Part shown: one piece after another, positions 1 to 7,092 of the stretch
How the letters are laid out: the number at the start of each line of letters is the position of its first letter
Numbering within the stretch: position 1 is the first letter of the stretch
Origin: a virus
Lineage: Duplodnaviria; Heunggongvirae; Uroviricota; Caudoviricetes
DNA: 10,978 bases
Reading direction: 5' to 3' (one strand)
IMG/VR virus record: IMGVR_UViG_2639762982_000007
Notes under the pieces: generated by a model
What the model was told of the DNA's origin: nothing
Seen by the model: only the letters and a program-made list of their open reading frames with translations
The model's database searches: none
Position numbers and translations under genes: made by a program

Positions 1-232
1 GTTCACCGAATACGTGCGCAACAACCGTCTTCCGGAGCCTGTCATACGCGTAAAACAGCCAGCGCTGGCGCGATTTAGCCCCGACATAGCCCCACTGTTC
101 GTCCATTTCCGCGCAGACGATGACGTCACTGCCCGGCTGTATGCGCGAGGTTACCGACTGCGGCCTGAGTTTTTTAAGTGACGTAAAATCGTGTTGAGGC
201 CAACGCCCATAATGCGGGCAGTTGCCCAGCAT
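1..232 (-). CDS. insB: IS1 InsB transposase frame, partial (made as InsAB' by -1 frameshift); runs off window start
   Basis: Reverse-strand translation of 1..60 gives [19 protein letters not shown], an internal InsB segment. The upper boundary of about 232 is inferred from IS1 architecture, not precisely determined. Confidence 0.65.
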
Positions 233-426
233 CCAACGCCATTCATGGCCATATCAATGATTTTCTGGTGCGTACCGGGTTGAGAAGCGGTGTAAGTGAA
301 CTGCAGTTGCCATGTTTTACGGCAGTGAGAGCAGAGATAGCGCTGATGTCCGGCGATGCTTTTGCCGTTACGCACCACCCCGTCAGTAGCTGAACAGGAG
401 GGACAGCTGATAGAAACAGAAGCCAC
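151..426 (-). CDS. insA: IS1 InsA transposition regulator (91 aa)
   Basis: ORF-track protein [40 protein letters not shown]... matches IS1 InsA. The start lies 55 nt inside the IS1 end, as expected. Confidence 0.9.
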
Positions 427-481
427 TGGAGCACCTCAAAAACACCATCATACACTAAATCAGTAAGTTGGCAGCATCACC

Positions 482-723
482 TGAATAGAAGTGGAAAAAG
501 AAAATCATCTATTGCAGGTAATTTTACTAAATTAGGTGAGGCAATTACCTCGAGTGGGCAGAGGGTTTTTGGTGGTGATCTATCAAATGTAAATTTTTAC
601 GGAACAAATACGATTTTTGATGGAGATACAATATTTTTAATTAAATCACCTGATTCAGAGGAGTGGTCATCACAAAAAGCTTCCAAAGACGTAGAGGGCA
701 TCGTATTTGGAGGGAAAAAATGA
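482..723 (+). pseudogene. 3' fragment of an unknown gene truncated by the IS1 insertion (80 codons, no start codon)
   Basis: Frame beginning at 481 is open for 80 codons (LNRSGKRKSSIAGNFTKLGEAITSSGQRVFGGDLSNVNFYGTNTIFDGDTIFLIKSPDSEEWSSQKASKDVEGIVFGGKK) up to TGA at 721..723. It contains no ATG/GTG/TTG and abuts the IS1 end. So long an open frame is unlikely by chance in AT-rich DNA. Confidence 0.4.
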
Positions 724-1148
724 TTAACATTACTACTAAGGATGGCACTCAAGTCAGTGGTGAAGTAAGAGATCTAGTAATTCTTCTTGAAACTGATGGA
801 AAAACGGTGTCTGATTATTTGCAGCCAATCCCTCCCAAAAAAGATACACACTGGAGCATGATTTTCATTCCGGTAGCAATTTATATACTACTTAATCTTG
901 TATACATTATTGCTCACCCATTATTTCCTGAAAAATATCTAAAAACATCAACATCTATATTTCTATTCATTTCCTTCATATTAAGTGCAATAGTAGCATA
1001 TTTTGTTTTCCATAAGCATAAATCTGCCACTCTATCCATATGCAGCTTAGTGTTCTTAGTGTTAATTGTAGGTGCTAACGTAGGGTTTATCAGTTACAGC
1101 GACCTAACACAAAAAGCGACGCAAAAATTAGATAGTTTGTCTAAATAA
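720..1148 (+). CDS. small predicted membrane protein (about 142 aa, three hydrophobic segments), unknown function
   Basis: ATG at 720 is preceded by GGAGGG (709..714) and overlaps the upstream stop in an ATGA (720..723). The protein MINITTKDG... has a hydrophilic N-terminal ~45 aa followed by three hydrophobic stretches. The ORF-track start at 663 is a GTG without a ribosome-binding site. Region is AT-rich. Confidence 0.5.
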   Translation: MINITTKDGTQVSGEVRDLVILLETDGKTVSDYLQPIPPKKDTHWSMIFIPVAIYILLNLVYIIAHPLFPEKYLKTSTSIFLFISFILSAIVAYFVFHKHKSATLSICSLVFLVLIVGANVGFISYSDLTQKATQKLDSLSK

Positions 1149-1226
1149 TTATGTTGCCATGCGAAGTATGCATGGCTGCATGTCTGCCTTCCATTTAAAA
1201 TGGGCTAAGACCTATAACCCTAAATA

Positions 1227-1940
1227 TTATTCTTTATTATCTTCTTTACCACTTCGCACCATCCCGTTCGACTTGTTGCGGTTGTACTTCGCCTGAAGCA
1301 GCTGGATTGGCGTCGGGCCATGCTCGGCAGCCGGTGCTGCAATCGCCCGGCGCACAGGCGGTACTGGTTTGCCCTCGGTGACGCGCCTCTCCCACATGTC
1401 CAGCAGATCGCCGGCTTCACGCGCCAGCTCACCATGCGTTAACTGGCGCTCTGTGCTGCGGTGGCGCAGTTCGACGCAGATGTGGTACATGACAGGCTGT
1501 GACCACGGGAAATGCTCGCTGGAAGTGAATTCGAAGGAACGATTACGCCAATCCCAGTATTCGGTTATGACTTGGTCAACAGTGATACCTAACGCCCCGC
1601 CACTCTGCTTACACCACGCTACGAACTGGCCGGGCGACGGCAGGAATGGTCGATTCTGCCGACGGGCTACGCGCATTCCAGCGTTAACCTGTTCCATTGT
1701 GGTGATCCCGTTTTCCCGGAAAGCCAGAACCCACTGGCGGCGAATTTCGTTCAGTTCGTTCTGGTCACGGTTAGCCAGGCTCGCAGGGAAAGTTGCCAGC
1801 AACTGGCTGAATACACCGTTGATGATCTGCGCTACCTGCTGTACCTGCGGCTTTTCGTCGTACTGTTCCGGCATGTTGTTGGCGATCCGGCGCATCTGCT
1901 CACGGTCAAAGTTAATCATCTGTGCGGCGATGTTTTTCAT
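1227..1940 (-). CDS. P: lambda P-family replication protein (helicase loader), divergent C-terminal half
   Basis: From the internal Met, MKNIAAQMINFDREQMRRIANNMPEQYDEKPQVQQVAQIINGVFSQLLATFPASLANRDQNELNEIRRQW... matches the lambda P N-terminus from memory. ATG at 1940 overlaps the O stop (ATGA). The ORF-track start at 2045 is an upstream extension overlapping O. Confidence 0.85.
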   Translation of the reverse strand: MKNIAAQMINFDREQMRRIANNMPEQYDEKPQVQQVAQIINGVFSQLLATFPASLANRDQNELNEIRRQWVLAFRENGITTMEQVNAGMRVARRQNRPFLPSPGQFVAWCKQSGGALGITVDQVITEYWDWRNRSFEFTSSEHFPWSQPVMYHICVELRHRSTERQLTHGELAREAGDLLDMWERRVTEGKPVPPVRRAIAAPAAEHGPTPIQLLQAKYNRNKSNGMVRSGKEDNKE

Positions 1941-2866
1941 AGATCCACCCCGTAAATCCAGTCTGTGTTTGTCAGGTCGAGTTTTGGTTTGCCGGCTGTC
2001 ACGCCAGCCTGTTGCTTGTTTCGGTTGATTTCGAGCTGGGTCCACTTGTCGCGGAGTTTGGCCGGACTCAGCACGTTACCGGACCAGAAGTTGTCCTGGC
2101 ATGCCCAGCGGAACAGTACACACATGTCGCGGTGGTTACGTCCGTCACGTTCACGCATCAGGCGGATATCGTTAGCCCACCCTGCAAAATTCGGTTTTCT
2201 GGCTGATGGCGCGATGGTCTTCACCATGTCAAACATCCACTCTGCGGCGGTCAGGTCTTCTGCTGTCCCCCACTTGCTGCCGCTCTGAATTGCAGCATCC
2301 GGTTTCACCACAGGAAGGGCATTTTCTGGCTGGTCAGAGGATTCGCCATAATTCTCGGACGAAAAAGGTTTTATATTGTCTTTTGTTAGTTTGTCTTTTG
2401 TGTTTACCTGATTCGGGTAAACGCCTTTACCTGATTTGGGTAAACTTTTCTTACCTGATTCAGGTAAATTTACCTCTTTCAGGTAAACTTTATTTTTCTT
2501 ACCTGATTCGGGTAATGTTGACCATTCACTGACCACATTATTAATGCCGATATTCCGCCCGCTCTGAATAAGAATCCCACGCTTTACCAGAACGCTTTTT
2601 GCAGCAGAACACTTGTGCGGCAATATCCCGGTCAATTCGGAAAGTTGCTCGTTGCTCACCCAATCCAGTCTTTTATTAAAGCCATATGTTTTGCGCATGA
2701 CAGCCAGGAAGACCAGAAGCTGGTGCTGTGTTAATCCGGCCAGCATCACAGCTTCCAGCAACTCATTTGCAATGCGCGTATAACCATCGTCGAGATCTGC
2801 CACGCGCGGCTCCTTTTGTGCCACATCCGGCACTGGAAAATTGAATATCTCAGCAGTGTTTGCCAT
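1937..2866 (-). CDS. O: lambda O-family replication initiator (ori-binding)
   Basis: From Met at 2866, MANTAEIFNF...VADLDDGYTRIANELLEA...RKTYGFNK...ESYGESSDQPENALPVVKPDAAIQSG resembles lambda O. A strong GGGAGG site lies 4 nt upstream. Iterons sit inside the gene, as in lambda. The track start at 2956 is a likely upstream extension. Confidence 0.85.
   Translation of the reverse strand: MANTAEIFNFPVPDVAQKEPRVADLDDGYTRIANELLEAVMLAGLTQHQLLVFLAVMRKTYGFNKRLDWVSNEQLSELTGILPHKCSAAKSVLVKRGILIQSGRNIGINNVVSEWSTLPESGKKNKVYLKEVNLPESGKKSLPKSGKGVYPNQVNTKDKLTKDNIKPFSSENYGESSDQPENALPVVKPDAAIQSGSKWGTAEDLTAAEWMFDMVKTIAPSARKPNFAGWANDIRLMRERDGRNHRDMCVLFRWACQDNFWSGNVLSPAKLRDKWTQLEINRNKQQAGVTAGKPKLDLTNTDWIYGVDL
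2404..2515. repeat. replication origin iterons: five ~17-bp direct repeats TTACCTGATTCGGGTAA (each an inverted pair TTACC-N7-GGTAA) inside O
   Basis: Copies at 2404..2420, 2427..2443, 2451..2467, 2470..2486 (degenerate) and 2499..2515. An adjacent AT-rich stretch with two TTGTCTTTTGT copies lies at 2368..2400. Layout parallels ori-lambda within O. Confidence 0.8.
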
Positions 2867-2952
2867 AATTCCTCCCGCAATGAGTGTGTTACGATTTGCA
2901 CCTGAAAGTCGGTTCTGTTCGCGCAGACCGGCTTTCGCCATTTCCGAACCTG

Positions 2953-3498
2953 TCATATTGCCCCCAGCATGGTGGTGACCATCGCCATCAGTGGACCAGC
3001 CAAATCCGGGTCCACACGAAACATCGACACAATGCCTTCACTCATCTCCTTCAGTTTCTGGTGGCGTGGTGCGTTGAGAATGACAGCCTGTTTTGCCTCA
3101 CTGAGTTCCTTTTCCATTTCAGCCAGCCGAGCCATGAAGCTATCCTGCTCAACCAGGTGGCCGCGATATTCCAGCGGTAGTACCGCCAGAATTGCCGGGG
3201 TCAATTCACGCACGTTATTTCGGTATTTTTCAGAATCGAATTTGTTATCGAGGAAGCGGAACAGCTTCTGGCGTGCACGGCTGACATCATCAGGGAAATC
3301 GATGGTGCCGCCGCCCTGCTCCCGATACTCATTCACAATGAGTGCGGCAACGACATCCTGATTATCTACAGCCGACCAGGCGCGGACGGCATCACGGATT
3401 TTTTCGTGGCCTGGAGCTTGTTTTGTTTGAGAACGATTTATCACCGCAGTCGGGCTAAATCCGCTAGTCTGTTGGTATGTAAGTGGTTGCATAGTCAT
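2953..3498 (-). CDS. YdaT-family protein, likely CII-analogous early regulator
   Basis: Lies between the cro-like gene and O in the rightward early operon. Motifs NEYREQGGG and LTPAILAVLP resemble Rac prophage YdaT as I recall it. Start may be the second ATG at 3492, which has better ribosome-binding-site spacing. Confidence 0.65.
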   Translation of the reverse strand: MTMQPLTYQQTSGFSPTAVINRSQTKQAPGHEKIRDAVRAWSAVDNQDVVAALIVNEYREQGGGTIDFPDDVSRARQKLFRFLDNKFDSEKYRNNVRELTPAILAVLPLEYRGHLVEQDSFMARLAEMEKELSEAKQAVILNAPRHQKLKEMSEGIVSMFRVDPDLAGPLMAMVTTMLGAI

Positions 3499-3522
3499 TG
3501 CCTTATCAGTTAACGCCGCAGT

Positions 3523-3750
3523 TTAGGCGGCAGAATTACTCGCGTTAAACAATGGTGCGAGGTCGGGACGAATATCTGCTGGTTTAATCTTTCCACCAGT
3601 GGCTGAGACAATTTTCATTACATAGCGGGCATCAATTCCGCCACCGTGTAGCCAACGCCAAACTGTGGGTTGGGCTACACCGCATAGATCTGCCAGTCGT
3701 TTTTGACTACCTGTAATACTGATTGCGAGTTGAATGGTTTGATTTGTCAT
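3523..3750 (-). CDS. Cro-like helix-turn-helix repressor (YdaS/Cro family, about 75 aa)
   Basis: Divergent from the repressor gene. Helix-turn-helix signature QKRLADLCGVAQPTVWRW. ATG at 3750 has a GGA site 7 nt upstream; the track start at 3756 is TTG. Confidence 0.75.
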   Translation of the reverse strand: MTNQTIQLAISITGSQKRLADLCGVAQPTVWRWLHGGGIDARYVMKIVSATGGKIKPADIRPDLAPLFNASNSAA

Positions 3751-3860
3751 TATCAATTCCTATTGGTATTGCAATGAATGAATAATAGCAATGAGTATTA
3801 ATCCAAGCAATAGCAAAACGTGTTTTGACCATCAATACGCAAGCGTATAAATTAAAACTT
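3751..3860. promoter_or_regulatory. OR-like divergent operator/promoter region (PR leftward, PRM rightward)
   Basis: Intergenic between the divergent cro-like and cI genes. AATAGCAA(T) motif at 3784..3792 and 3809..3816 (25-bp spacing). Candidate PR on minus strand: -35 TTGCTT (plus 3805..3810), 17-bp spacer, -10 TATTAT (plus 3782..3787). Candidate PRM on plus strand: -35 TTGACC 3825..3830, -10 near 3846..3852. Confidence 0.55.
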
Positions 3861-4553
3861 ATGAAAAAAGAAACTCTTGCTGATCGCTTAAATCTAGCGA
3901 TGGAACAATCTGGAATGTCTCAAGGCGCTCTTGCAAAGGCGTCTGGCGTAGCTCAACCCACAATCTGGAGACTGACAAGCGGCAACGCGCGCGGCTCAAC
4001 AAAAATTGTTGAAATAGCTAATGCATTGGGTGTTCGAACAGAATGGCTCTCTTCAGGCATAGGCCCGATGAGAAATGACGGTCAACAATCAGGGAAGCCT
4101 GCTGTCAGCCATTCCAAATACTTCAAAATTGACGTTCTTGATATAGAAGTCAGTGCCGGGCCGGGTGTAATCAACCGTGAGTTTGTAGAAGTTCTACGCT
4201 CGGTTGAATACTCGTTTGACGATGCTCGTCACATGTTCGATGGCAGGAAGGCGGAAAATATCCGCATCATTAACGTGCGTGGTGACAGCATGTCAGGAAC
4301 GATCGAACCAGGTGATCTGCTGTTCGTTGATATCACGGTTAAATCTTTCGACGGTGATGGTATCTATGCGTTTCTGTATGACGACACCGCCCATGTAAAA
4401 CGCCTGCAAATGATGAAGGATAAGCTGCTGGTTATCTCTGATAACAAGAGCTACTCACCGTGGGACCCGATCGAGAAAGACGAGATGAACCGCGTGTTCA
4501 TCTTCGGGAAAGTCATCGGGAGCATGCCGCAGACATATAGAAAGCATGGGTAG
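3861..4553 (+). CDS. cI: CI-type prophage repressor: N-terminal helix-turn-helix plus C-terminal LexA-like S24 autopeptidase (230 aa)
   Basis: Helix-turn-helix MSQGALAKASGVAQPTIWRL. S24 motifs GDSM (catalytic Ser) and HVKRL (Lys). The track start at 3825 is TTG; the first ATG is 3861 with no ribosome-binding site, consistent with a leaderless PRM transcript as in lambda. Confidence 0.85.
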   Translation: MKKETLADRLNLAMEQSGMSQGALAKASGVAQPTIWRLTSGNARGSTKIVEIANALGVRTEWLSSGIGPMRNDGQQSGKPAVSHSKYFKIDVLDIEVSAGPGVINREFVEVLRSVEYSFDDARHMFDGRKAENIRIINVRGDSMSGTIEPGDLLFVDITVKSFDGDGIYAFLYDDTAHVKRLQMMKDKLLVISDNKSYSPWDPIEKDEMNRVFIFGKVIGSMPQTYRKHG

Positions 4554-4682
4554 AAATCAGAACAAAATTATGCACTTCGCTTTTCAGCTTACTGTAGTAA
4601 GGCAATAAATTAGGCTTGACGTTAGCTATCAGGTGCACAACAATAATTGTTGAATAATAGGTTTTTTTAACTAGGTGATAAC

Positions 4683-5822
4683 ATGGCAGCGGTTGAATTT
4701 CAATTGTCTAGGAAGATGATTGATTGGATAGCAAATTCTCAAGGAGTTTCTATCGAAACTCTTGCTGACCAAGTCATGCCCAAAAAGATTAATAAATTTC
4801 TTAACGGAGTGGTAAGTAAATCCGCAGCAGAAAAACTGGCAAAAATTGGAGGAATCCCTTTCGGTTTTTTATTTCTTGAAACGCCACCAACTCCAGCCAA
4901 ACCCAAGATCCCTGACTTAAGGCAAGCTATAAATAGCCGTGAGTTAGGAAAAGATTTTTTTGATGTTTACTATGATATAGAATATAAACTTGAGTGGTAC
5001 AAAGACTATTTAAGAGAAAATGGTAATGATGATCCACTCGATTTTATTGGTAAATTTAAATTTAATAGAAAATTAAATTATAAGGTTGTTGCTACAGACA
5101 TAGCAAACACAATACATTTTGATATACAAAAAGAGATAAAAAATGTCACTTTTGAGAGCTATTTTTCTAAAGTGGCAAAACTAATAGAAGACACTGGCGT
5201 ATTAGTTTTCAAGAATGGTGTTGTGGGTAATAATAATAAAAGAAAACTTGACACGCGAGAGTTTCGTGGTTTCTGTATATCTGATAGCGTTGCTCCGATC
5301 ATTTTTGTAAATAGCTCGGACGCGTTATCTGCGCAGGTATTTACATTATTTCATGAGGTGGCTCATCTTTGGCTTGGAGTCGATGGAGTCTCTGGGTGGG
5401 ACACAGAAAAAAACATAGAATCTTTTTGTAATAAAGTTGCTGCTGAAATCTTAATGCCTGATAATCTCTTCAAATCTTTCTGGCTTAATGCATCCAGCGA
5501 TAATAATTATTATCGAGTAAAAGAGGTTTCTAAGTTATTTAAGGTTAGTGATTTCGCTTGTGCAATCAAAGCGTTACAATTAGATTTGATAGAAAGAAAC
5601 ACTTTGGAGATAATTAAAGATCAAGCTTACAATAAGCCCAAAAAAGAATCCAATGGTGGTTCTTTCTTTAACACATTACCTGTTCGTAACAGTCCAAAAC
5701 TTACGAATATAATAATTTCCAAAGCAATGTCTCAACAATTACCATTAAGGGAAGCAGGCGTACTGCTAAATGTAAAAGCAGATACAGTTGTTGAATTTTA
5801 TAAAAAACGAGAATCTCTATGA
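4683..5822 (+). CDS. ImmA/IrrE-family (M78, COG2856-type) zinc metallopeptidase with helix-turn-helix-like N-terminal domain (379 aa)
   Basis: HEXXH at residues 224..228 (FTLFHEVAHLWLG) followed by the family-typical downstream motif NKVAAEILMPDNLF. N-terminal ~70 aa helical and helix-turn-helix-like. AGGTGA ribosome-binding site 4 nt upstream. Markedly AT-rich relative to neighbours. Confidence 0.8.
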   Translation: MAAVEFQLSRKMIDWIANSQGVSIETLADQVMPKKINKFLNGVVSKSAAEKLAKIGGIPFGFLFLETPPTPAKPKIPDLRQAINSRELGKDFFDVYYDIEYKLEWYKDYLRENGNDDPLDFIGKFKFNRKLNYKVVATDIANTIHFDIQKEIKNVTFESYFSKVAKLIEDTGVLVFKNGVVGNNNKRKLDTREFRGFCISDSVAPIIFVNSSDALSAQVFTLFHEVAHLWLGVDGVSGWDTEKNIESFCNKVAAEILMPDNLFKSFWLNASSDNNYYRVKEVSKLFKVSDFACAIKALQLDLIERNTLEIIKDQAYNKPKKESNGGSFFNTLPVRNSPKLTNIIISKAMSQQLPLREAGVLLNVKADTVVEFYKKRESL

Positions 5823-6331
5823 TTCATAATGGAAAATTCTTAATTGATAGTAATGTCTTCATAGAGGCAAAAAACTTTGCATATAACTTCAATTATTGCA
5901 AAATATTTTGGGATTTTCTTCTCGCTTTACACATTAATGGTCTGATTTATAGCATTAATGCTGTAAAAAAAGAACTATGTGCAAAAGATGATCCATTGTG
6001 TAAATGGATTAAAGAAGAGTTACCATCATCATTCTTCGAAGATGAGCATAGTTCAATAGAAAATTATGCAAAGTTAATAAATTGGTCAACTAAATTAGAT
6101 GTTACCGAAAAGGCAAAGTTTGATTTTGCAAGCCATGAAAAAGCAGATGCTTTTTTAATAGCCCATGCGATGACACATGGATATACTATTATTACCCATG
6201 AGAAACCATCCGGTGGCAAACCTAAAAAAAGAATAATGATCCCGGATGCTGCTGCTTCTCACGGCGTTAAGACATTAACACTATATGAATTTCTTCCAAG
6301 ATACGCTAGTCATAATTTTTCTTTGAAATAA
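5819..6331 (+). CDS. PIN-like putative nuclease (DUF4411-like), 170 aa; candidate effector/toxin
   Basis: N-terminus FLIDSNVFIEAKNFAYNF...FWDFL has the PIN-type first strand with conserved acidic residue and resembles DUF4411 proteins as I recall them. Start overlaps the upstream stop (ATGA 5819..5822). Same AT-rich composition as the upstream gene. Confidence 0.65.
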   Translation: MIHNGKFLIDSNVFIEAKNFAYNFNYCKIFWDFLLALHINGLIYSINAVKKELCAKDDPLCKWIKEELPSSFFEDEHSSIENYAKLINWSTKLDVTEKAKFDFASHEKADAFLIAHAMTHGYTIITHEKPSGGKPKKRIMIPDAAASHGVKTLTLYEFLPRYASHNFSLK

Positions 6332-6336
6332 AACGT

Positions 6337-6363
6337 CCCGGCCACCGTGCCGGGTTTTCTTTT
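6337..6363 (+). terminator. intrinsic terminator ending the cI-module transcription unit
   Basis: GC-only 6-bp stem CCCGGC (6337..6342) / GCCGGG (6349..6354) with 6-nt loop, followed by TTTTCTTTT (6355..6363). Lies 6 nt after the stop of the PIN-like gene. Confidence 0.7.
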
Positions 6364-6485
6364 GCCTCCCCTCATCACACACACCGTTCAAAAAACCACC
6401 ACAACCCCGCTTCAGTTATCGCTATGCGATGCAAGTCACAAAATTAATTCTTTTTGCTATCAAATATTTAATATCAAAACACATC

Positions 6486-6532
6486 TAGCAATAGCAATAA
6501 GTATTGATATCATCAATAGCAATAGCTATTAT
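6486..6532 (+). promoter_or_regulatory. OL/PL-like operator-promoter for the leftward early operon (gam-bet-exo)
   Basis: -35 TTGATA 6504..6509, 17-bp spacer, -10 TATTAT 6527..6532. AATAGCAAT at 6490..6498 and 6515..6523 (same 25-bp spacing as OR). Palindrome AATAGCTATT at 6521..6530. Confidence 0.5.
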
Positions 6533-6725
6533 CACCATGTCGCAACAACACAACGATACGGCAATCACCTGATTCACCGTTGCGATGACCGCTTAGATCC
6601 GCAGCTTGAATTTCAGCAGGCTCCGGGGAGTGCGAGGGGTGAAGCGGACGCGTGAACGTCGGTGTGACCAGCTGAAATCAACTCAACACTTCATACCTCA
6701 GTCGCTTCAACGAGGCGGCTTAGTT

Positions 6726-7016
6726 ATGACAACCGGCGGCCATCCACCGCCTGAATACGCGCAGAAGTCTTTATATGTTCAGCAGCCCAGCTTACGGGCA
6801 GGAGTTTTTATGGTTCATCAACATTACGGAACGCAGACCGTTAATCGCGGTGCGGTCATGCCAGGAATGCTGGTCAAACACAAAGATGGTACCTGGACTG
6901 CATCAGCTAATTTACGCGGACGGCTTTATCTGCATCGCGGCATCGAGCGCACTTATACCCGTGATTTGCTCGTAGAAGTTTTTCTCGACGGACGCGGTAA
7001 CGGCCTGAATCACTAA
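6726..7016 (+). CDS. hypothetical protein, first ORF of the PL operon (96 aa from first ATG)
   Basis: ATG at 6726 with GAGG 10 nt upstream. The ORF-track version (6606..7016) starts at TTG and adds an Arg-rich N-terminal extension. No recognisable family. Confidence 0.3.
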   Translation: MTTGGHPPPEYAQKSLYVQQPSLRAGVFMVHQHYGTQTVNRGAVMPGMLVKHKDGTWTASANLRGRLYLHRGIERTYTRDLLVEVFLDGRGNGLNH

Positions 7017-7092
7017 CCCCTCTTTCCTGTTTTCCTAATCAGCCTGGCATTTCGCGGGCGATATTTTCACAGCCATTTTCAGGAGTTCAGCC

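Follow-up and report, generated by a model that had tools for sequence, protein, structure and literature searches.

In a 10,978-nucleotide stretch of Caudoviricetes DNA (IMG/VR record IMGVR_UViG_2639762982_000007; here called the window, meaning the stretch at its full length), two overlapping genes lie directly downstream of a cI repressor gene. Gene 1 encodes a protein with a zinc-peptidase domain of the M78 (ImmA/IrrE-type) family, gene 2 encodes a PIN-like protein of the DUF4411 family, and the two products are homologous to the two chains of VapBC52, a toxin-antitoxin complex of Mycobacterium tuberculosis. We think it likely that the pair makes up a type II toxin-antitoxin module that is self-contained and belongs to the VapBC52 kind, and that an icd-adjacent lambdoid prophage of Escherichia coli carries it between cI and the promoter PL as cargo expressed in the lysogen. 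The cassette and its parts are as follows (helix-turn-helix, HTH; guanine-plus-cytosine, GC; AlphaFold2, AF2).

4554 to 6336, + strand: variable cargo cassette of low GC content in the slot between cI and the leftward operator and promoter (OL/PL), delimited by GC content and BLAST edges.
4683 to 5822, + strand: gene 1, candidate HTH/M78 zinc-peptidase antitoxin (VapB52-like, RmrA-like) of 379 amino acids, assigned with Pfam, PHROG, a PDB profile and an AF2 model.
4914 to 4922, + strand: linker motif D78-L79-R80 of gene 1, aligned to the D-F-R ("FR") motif of VapB52, a probable self-cleavage site, in PDB 9vzy chain A.
5352 to 5420, + strand: zinc site of gene 1, H224-E225-x-x-H228 and E246, with Ser237 at the position of VapB52 Cys229, from the alignment of 34 homologues to 9vzy chain A.
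5819 to 6331, + strand: gene 2, candidate DUF4411 PIN-like toxin (VapC52-like) of 170 amino acids, the start of which overlaps the stop of gene 1 (ATGA, 5819 to 5822).

Gene 2 matched the Pfam family DUF4411 over nearly its full length (E=1.2e-37) and the PHROG family phrog_11126 with an E value of 1.3e-67. The acidic residues of the PIN active site, D10, E52, D110 and E128, are intact in the window and invariant in 31 gene 2 homologues. An AF2 model of high confidence (predicted local distance difference test [pLDDT] score of 87.7) had a VapC-like PIN fold, and the best Foldseek matches of that model were the VapC toxins 3h87_B, 6a7v and 3tnd. A first-pass annotation, made by a model from the sequence alone, had called gene 2 a PIN-like, DUF4411-like nuclease, and that call was upheld by the Pfam match, by the model and by homology to chain D of PDB entry 9vzy. 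The overlap that it had read as translational coupling was likewise confirmed in the sequence, as ATGA at 5819 to 5822. We conclude that gene 2 probably encodes, by homology, a PIN-fold (DUF4411) ribonuclease toxin. Among relatives of the gene, those of Enterobacter kobei (P0038/P0039) were split into two open reading frames (ORFs) of 94 and 108 codons, and one from E. coli (P0061) matched over only 38% of the query, which suggests that the toxin gene is sometimes inactivated by mutation.

Gene 1 matched Pfam Peptidase_M78 at residues 169 to 291 (E=1.2e-13) and phrog_2439 over its full length (3e-76). The HEVAH zinc site occupies residues 224 to 228, and the third zinc ligand, E246, falls within a downstream E-x-x-C-N-x-x-A-A-E-x-L-x-P block. 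H224, E225, H228 and E246 are invariant in 34 gene 1 homologues, and the catalytic residues are intact. The ImmA/IrrE-type peptidase with an HEVAH site and an AAEILMP block that had been read from the sequence was therefore substantiated, both by the Pfam match and by homology to solved structures. The AF2 model (pLDDT 89.3) comprised a five-helix N-terminal domain, a peptidase core and a four-helix C-terminal domain, with a low-confidence linker at about residues 70 to 90, and the best solved folds retrieved with it by Foldseek were CapP (7t5t) and then IrrE (3dti). The HTH-like N-terminus that had also been proposed fared less evenly, as it was supported by a profile alignment to the N-terminal domain of VapB52, by the five-helix model and by a weak PHROG match, but an N-terminal HTH was not detected by Pfam. 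A match to the NCBIfam spr1629 antitoxin family was not used, because it lay far below threshold (24.6 bits against a cutoff of 335).

Profiles built from the 31 gene 2 homologues and the 34 gene 1 homologues were searched against the sequences of solved structures. The gene 2 family profile matched 9vzy chain D, which is deposited as "DUF4411 family protein" and corresponds to VapC52, with an E value of 1.1e-13 (7e-6 for the single sequence). The gene 1 family profile matched 9vzy chain A, deposited as "HTH cro/C1-type domain-containing protein" and corresponding to VapB52, over profile positions 10 to 333 with an E value of 2.5e-22 (8e-7 for the single sequence). In chain lengths and in copy numbers, 9vzy agrees with the M. 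tuberculosis VapBC52 complex (Rv2515c/Rv2514c). The Foldseek PDB library ended in April 2026 and did not include 9vzy or 9vzz, and thus it is sequence profiles, not a fold match, that tie the window pair to VapBC52.

The mycobacterial pair has been characterized in two studies. Rv2514c was shown in 2019 to be toxic and to be rescued by Rv2515c, as expected of a toxin-antitoxin pair (PMC6504116), and the structure (PDB 9vzy and 9vzz) and mechanism were published in Nucleic Acids Research in June 2026 (PMC13273310). VapBC52 forms a 1:2 complex in which one antitoxin binds a toxin dimer, and VapB52 has an HTH-like domain at its N-terminus, then a zinc peptidase that resembles IrrE and CapP, and at its C-terminus a domain of four helices that blocks the active site of the toxin; its reported structural neighbors are CapP and IrrE (PMC13273310). 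Single-stranded DNA causes HExxH-dependent self-cleavage of VapB52, which removes the N-terminal domain at the "FR"-motif linker and frees the toxin (PMC13273310). Cys229 has been proposed to act as a "cysteine switch", shared with CapP, that caps the zinc and holds VapB52 inactive until single-stranded DNA binds (PMC13273310). Once free, VapC52 cleaves host transfer RNAs (tRNAs) and arrests growth, and phage D29 encodes five tRNAs, every one of which it also cleaves in vitro (PMC13273310). VapC52 alone protected Mycobacterium smegmatis from phage D29, whereas co-expression of VapB52 and VapC52 gave no protection (PMC13273310).

The window pair resembles VapBC52 at several levels. Both are single operons in which the antitoxin gene precedes the toxin gene, and the product of gene 2, like VapC52, is a PIN protein of the DUF4411 family, in which all four acidic residues are shared. 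Gene 1 shares with VapB52 the three-domain layout, the HExxH...E peptidase, the five N-terminal and four C-terminal helices and the CapP and IrrE neighbors. Moreover, in both proteins a D-x-R motif is found in the linker that joins the N-terminal domain to the peptidase domain. D78 and R80 of that motif are invariant in the 34 homologues, and the D78-L79-R80 stretch falls where the pLDDT of the AF2 model is lowest and is presumably flexible. We conclude from sequence homology that the window pair is apparently a remote, prophage-borne member of the VapBC52-type toxin-antitoxin family.

The resemblance is not complete. Position 79 of the linker, which is Phe in VapB52, is Leu in gene 1, and among the homologues it is Leu in 23, Phe in 10 and Met in 1. 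The residue aligned with the Cys229 zinc switch is near-invariantly Ser in the gene 1 clade (position 237 is Ser in 32 of the 34 homologues and Thr in the other 2), the loop is shorter, and none of the 34 has a cysteine between H228 and E246. Because of the Ser or Thr at position 237, the loop without cysteine and the Leu at linker position 79, the enterobacterial clade probably restrains its peptidase, or senses its trigger, somewhat differently from VapB52. Finally, the window pair lies in a prophage immunity region of a proteobacterium, whereas VapBC52 is chromosomal and actinobacterial.

The first-pass annotation left open whether the pairing was already a named system and implied novelty, which did not hold. 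Makarova et al. in 2009 (PMC2701414) and Matelska et al. in 2017 (PMC5499597) had both predicted a three-component toxin-antitoxin system with this pairing, the latter describing DUF4411.1 genes downstream of fused DUF955-HTH genes, and the mycobacterial pair was characterized in 2019 and 2026. The domain pairing, the toxin-antitoxin nature and the mechanism being already published, the discovery is incremental. A literature search found no study of these E. coli proteins.

The boundaries of the cassette were sharp. When BLAST was run against five prophage variants with other contents in the slot, homology of the left flank stopped at 4549 to 4554, at the cI stop (4553), and homology on the right restarted at 6336 to 6337, the first base of a terminator stem, in four of the five (L016 to L019); in the variant with a SIR2 gene (L015) it restarted only at 6573. 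The GC content of the cassette is 0.334, compared with 0.502 in the left flank and 0.482 in the right flank, in agreement with the low GC content that had been noted. At 99% identity or more, the cassette was present in 33 of 5,426 complete E. coli genomes. In other E. coli prophages with the identical cI (WP_001295669.1), the slot instead contained a gene for a hypothetical protein with a DUF3037 gene, or a DUF6414 gene. A SIR2-family gene occupied the slot behind a near-identical cI, and a Panacea-domain pair, or nothing, followed a third cI. These variants bear out the suggestion that the position equivalent to lambda rexAB is a cargo hotspot, and the cI-N interval has been described as a mosaic hotspot that houses rexAB and bstA (PMC8585504). 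Other cargo seen in the slot of sister E. coli prophages (L015 to L019, H28 to H53) encodes an ASCH-domain protein, a DUF6932 protein and a HipA-family kinase with DUF3037, and several of these alternative cargos are uncharacterized candidates for lysogen-expressed functions.

The pair recurred well beyond this slot. All the contexts examined had an M78 gene, 365 to 384 codons long, directly 5′ of a DUF4411 gene of 169 to 174 codons and overlapping or abutting it, and the order of antitoxin then toxin was kept in 13 of 13 related loci (L002 to L014), such that the pairing is obligate. In a Klebsiella Rac-like prophage the pair followed a repressor that has no S24 domain, and in three Providencia lambdoid prophages it followed S24 repressors, each a different one; it was also found in a P22 immI-like region and at a chromosomal site beside truA in Actinobacillus with no prophage. 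In all, it was recorded behind at least five different repressors, or without one. One related pair stood beside DUF499/DUF1156/HEPN defense genes, and relatives were found on plasmids or megaplasmids in 25 of 72,556 records. Among sequenced phages, megablast found no match to the module, and the matches by tblastn were confined to one or two metagenomic phage contigs, both distant. We conclude that the module is an element of prophages, plasmids and chromosomes rather than one met in isolated phages. Because its edges are sharp, the identical cI occurs with other cargo and the pair recurs elsewhere, we further conclude that the pair is self-contained cargo in the rexAB-equivalent hotspot and not a helper of the repressor.

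If the homology to VapBC52 extends to function, gene 1 would hold a dimer of the gene 2 toxin inactive. In a lysogen, transcription of the pair would run on from the cI promoter, begin at a weak promoter of its own at 4616 to 4644, or do both, and coupled translation would leave the toxin neutralized. A signal associated with infection or damage, which in VapBC52 is single-stranded DNA, would activate the peptidase, and the peptidase would then cut itself at the D-L-R linker and shed the N-terminal domain. The toxin, once liberated, would cut tRNAs and halt translation, and either the infecting phage would be aborted or the cell arrested. The first-pass model of a sensor peptidase that gates a nuclease effector fits the homologous VapBC52 system (PMC13273310), but there antitoxin and peptidase are one protein, and its substrate is that protein, not a separate repressor. 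A role of the intact pair in phage defense is plausible.

A number of points weigh against a defensive module of the VapBC52 kind. In the mycobacterial study, the intact VapB52-VapC52 pair failed to protect against D29 and only the toxin by itself did so. The similarity to VapBC52 is remote (pairwise E values of 7e-6 for the toxin and 8e-7 for the antitoxin), and mechanistic details may not be transferable; in particular, the Cys229 switch is absent, and the trigger or the auto-inhibition may differ from that of VapB52. A single-stranded-DNA trigger would presumably also go off when the prophage itself is induced by the SOS response, and a self-immunity feature that would resolve this clash was not identified. 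PADLOC-DB v2 contains no model for gene 2, and its RmrA models match gene 1 weakly. Lastly, in E. coli ATCC 43886 (L020 1630 to 4055, equivalent to window 4683 to 6331), an insertion sequence (IS), IS1, splits gene 1 into an N-terminal ORF of 188 codons and a C-terminal ORF of 205 codons, and despite the split antitoxin the toxin gene is intact and its product identical (WP_000581650.1). In that strain, either IS1 is polar on the toxin gene, or the fragments still neutralize, or the toxin is not lethal at its native expression. The strain is thus a natural test of toxin lethality without the full-length antitoxin.

In a more far-reaching version, the enterobacterial clade would be a true prophage abortive-infection system in which the VapBC52 switch has been rewired. 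With Ser in place of the capping Cys, activation would bypass the proposed cysteine-switch route and could answer to a phage-specific cue, for example a phage protein or a replication intermediate. We consider this version unlikely. Were it true, a rewired trigger would keep the toxin from firing when the prophage itself undergoes SOS induction, a problem of self-immunity comparable to that solved by aba in BstA, and it would be the first demonstration of an intact M78-antitoxin/DUF4411 pair in anti-phage defense and of discrimination between self and non-self by such a trigger.

The same biochemistry could also serve a selfish addiction or stabilization cassette that penalizes loss of the prophage, or of the cassette, and has no anti-phage role. 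The plasmid and megaplasmid relatives (25 of 72,556 records) and the non-prophage Actinobacillus site are typical of addiction modules, the intact mycobacterial pair gave no D29 protection, and the prophage is kept in 33 genomes even though it is decaying, with insertions of IS1, IS3 and IS10. Opposed to this is the company that the pair keeps. The slot carries SIR2, Panacea-domain and other defense-type cargo in sister prophages and rexAB or bstA in other phages, one relative lies beside DUF499/DUF1156/HEPN defense genes, and the ImmA-type antitoxin systems RosmerTA and PD-lambda-2 do defend against phages. On balance, a purely selfish cassette seems doubtful.

A module that excludes phage directly, in which the freed PIN-like nuclease selectively degrades phage nucleic acid or tRNAs and the host survives, would be in keeping with the cleavage of all five D29 tRNAs by VapC52 in vitro and with the DNA-processing nucleases found among PIN-like domains (PMC5499597). 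Host tRNAs are cut by VapC52 too, however, with arrest of growth, the conserved toxin-antitoxin architecture and translational coupling imply self-toxicity, and specificity for foreign targets is without evidence, all of which make direct exclusion very improbable. We give even less credence to the idea that gene 1 is an ImmA-like anti-repressor that cleaves the prophage repressor (or the Cro/YdaS-like protein) for induction and that gene 2 is an accessory nuclease; an induction protease for the repressor was the alternative that the first-pass annotation named as overturning its own reading. Separate HTH repressors are indeed the substrates of M78 proteases such as ImmA, IrrE and CapP, gene 1 lies directly 3′ of cI on the same strand, and the repressor beside the pair in the Klebsiella Rac-like prophage lacks an S24 domain. 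Yet the window cI has a Peptidase_S24 autocleavage domain of its own (E=1.5e-18), the identical cI functions in prophages without the module, the pair stands behind at least five different repressors and also where there is none, and the closest characterized homologue cuts itself rather than a partner. A protease specific for cI is contradicted by these facts.

The candidate VapBC52-type module offers a tractable E. coli representative of a toxin-antitoxin family whose workings have until now been studied in mycobacteria alone and which PADLOC-DB v2 overlooks. It sits in the best-studied defense slot of lambdoid phages, and prophages with the same repressor and other cargo provide natural isogenic comparators, which permit a direct test of peptidase-gated PIN toxins as lysogen-expressed immunity. 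The exchange of Ser for Cys is in turn a test case for the proposed cysteine-switch mechanism.

Expression of the pair was considered from the following signals in and beside the cassette.

4616 to 4644, + strand: candidate module promoter, with a −35 element TTGACG (4616 to 4621), a 17-nucleotide spacer and a weak −10 element AACAAT (4639 to 4644); 9 of 12 positions match in a promoter scan.
4638 to 4652, no strand assigned: perfect palindrome CAACAAT-a-ATTGTTG, which overlaps the −10 element; speculative autoregulatory operator.
4673 to 4677, + strand: Shine-Dalgarno sequence AGGTG, 5 nucleotides ahead of the gene 1 ATG, read from the sequence.
6337 to 6364, + strand: intrinsic terminator, CCCGGC-caccgt-GCCGGG with a T-run; the hairpin (6337 to 6354) has six G-C pairs and is followed by TTTTCTTTTG; it closes the cI operon.

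The −35 element that had been noted at 4616 to 4621 was present, but its −10 is weak, and a single promoter match of this quality is what chance alone would give, since the scan had 12 such matches against an expected 10.2. The same hexamers and spacing, TTGACG-17-AACAAT, also occur 5′ of a 53%-identical Klebsiella homologue in which the spacer has diverged, and TTGACC-17-AATACT occurs 5′ of a Providencia homologue. Because the elements recur in Klebsiella and a similar pair of elements occurs in Providencia, a promoter of the module's own at 4616 to 4644 is plausible. A + strand terminator was not found by a terminator scan between 4553 and 4683, and thus read-through from the cI promoter is plausible as well. 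The palindrome was not conserved in the regions that precede the homologous genes in Klebsiella and Providencia, and its use as an autoregulatory operator is weakly supported and retained only as speculation.

As the first-pass annotation stated, the gene pair lies directly 3′ of cI, on the same strand and ahead of a terminator; cI carries S24 and HTH domains and ends at 4553. The strong terminator said to close the pair does exist, but it belongs to the phage backbone rather than to the cassette. It was kept at 91 to 97% in four of the five examined prophages with other cargo or an empty slot (L016 to L019), and homology with these slot variants resumes exactly at 6337. We conclude that the terminator is a conserved backbone feature located outside the cassette.

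Several characterized systems resemble the pair in part. RosmerTA (RmrT/RmrA; Millman 2022; Ernits 2023) has in common with gene 1 an antitoxin made of an HTH and an ImmA-type zinc peptidase; it occurs in phages and prophages, and a defense phenotype has been validated for some of its members. The pairing falls within the part of the NetFlax network termed the ImmA/Rosmer zone, where this type of antitoxin is combined with exchangeable toxins and PIN-like domains are noted among its partners (PMC10440598). The characterized RmrT toxins differ from gene 2 in that they depolarize the membrane or have unknown function and are not PIN nucleases. Against 12 PADLOC RmrA models, gene 1 gave weak matches (E values of 6e-8 to 8e-4, 17 to 30 bits), some of which spanned residues 20 to 314, and gene 2 had no match in PADLOC-DB v2 at E<=0.1 and thus none to an RmrT model. 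The pair was therefore not classed as RosmerTA, the RmrA matches (best E=6e-8, about 30 bits) being probably due to the shared peptidase domain.

CapH/CapP, IrrE/DdrO and ImmA/ImmR share with gene 1 the M78 fold and the logic of a protease switch activated by stress or DNA damage. CapP, IrrE and ImmA cleave a separate HTH repressor and thereby derepress transcription, whereas gene 1, by homology to VapB52, would cleave off its own N-terminal domain and release a toxin. The best PADLOC match of gene 1 was to the capP model, through the peptidase domain (1e-14). A CBASS locus regulated by CapH/CapP was rejected, as that match covers the shared domain, the window contained no CBASS genes, and the cassette contained no small CapH-like HTH gene. 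PD-lambda-2 (Vassallo 2022) is an E. coli defense operon of the toxin-antitoxin type that includes a fusion of an Xre-HTH and an ImmA-IrrE peptidase and acts by abortive infection. It differs in having three genes, for a HigB-like protein, the Xre-peptidase and a P4-antitoxin-related protein, and in that its peptidase protein is itself toxic; the PD-Lambda-2_B model matched gene 1 weakly (E=8.5e-4).

By position, the pair is comparable to lambda RexAB and BTP1 BstA, which likewise lie 3′ of cI on the same strand, within the immunity region and ahead of a terminator, and lysogen expression of the pair is likely. Both of those systems act by abortive infection, and neither is related to the window pair in sequence or domains. 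RexAB has been described as a sensor (RexA) and an ion channel (RexB) (PMC8585504). Homology to RexA or RexB was not encountered, and the Pfam, PHROG and PADLOC matches of the two window proteins were to the M78 and DUF4411 families.

Bases 1 to 10658 of the window are 99.99% identical to the icd-adjacent lambdoid prophage of E. coli CV839-06. The + strand carries, in order, cI, gene 1, gene 2, the terminator, OL/PL, kil, gam, bet, exo, a Dam methylase gene and xis, and the − strand carries a Cro/YdaS-like gene, a YdaT-like gene, O and P. Two of these features frame the cassette.

3861 to 4553, + strand: cI repressor gene, 5′ of the cassette; HTH_3 and Peptidase_S24 by Pfam (S24 E=1.5e-18), RefSeq WP_001295669.1.
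6487 to 6532, + strand: OL/PL, operator-like repeats and a promoter, TTGATA-17-TATTAT (PL, 6504 to 6532).

The operator-like 9-mers CAATAGCAA and AGCAATAGC are common to OR (3784 to 3816, between cro and cI) and to OL/PL (6487 to 6532). With operator repeats on both sides, the gene pair lies inside the immunity region, as does rexAB in lambda. When the window was scanned with Rfam, no RNA element turned up within the cassette.

On the − strand between 2953 and 3756, the genes at the Cro and cII positions matched Pfam YdaS_toxin (1e-14) and YdaT_toxin (7e-30), and therefore the early-right region resembles that of the Rac prophage despite the lambda-like S24 repressor. An N-like antiterminator gene was neither annotated nor detectable between PL (6504 to 6532) and the kil-like gene (6810 to 7016). 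The only long ORF in the region from 6355 to 6810 spans 6606 to 7016, has a TTG start and no Pfam match, and overlaps kil in frame.

At its 5′ end, the window opens within an IS1 element (1 to about 460). Next to that element, an ORF at 663 to 1148 on the + strand, in the orientation opposite to the replication genes, has 161 codons (143 in RefSeq, hypothetical protein WP_000608370.1) and a low GC content of 0.348. Its product is hydrophobic and resembles a multi-transmembrane protein, with a subthreshold match to Pfam 7TMR-DISM_7TM (3.7e-4), and the gene may be a second accessory piece of cargo. At the other end, the excisionase gene, which starts at 10601, is interrupted 58 nucleotides in by an end of IS10 (10659 to 10978). 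Identity to the CV839-06 prophage ends at 10658, where the IS10 terminal sequence CTGATGAATCCCCTAATGATTTTGG starts, and RNA-OUT was detected on the − strand at 10703 to 10772 (Rfam, 98.8 bits). With IS10 in its excisionase gene, the prophage of the strain from which the window derives is probably unable to excise.

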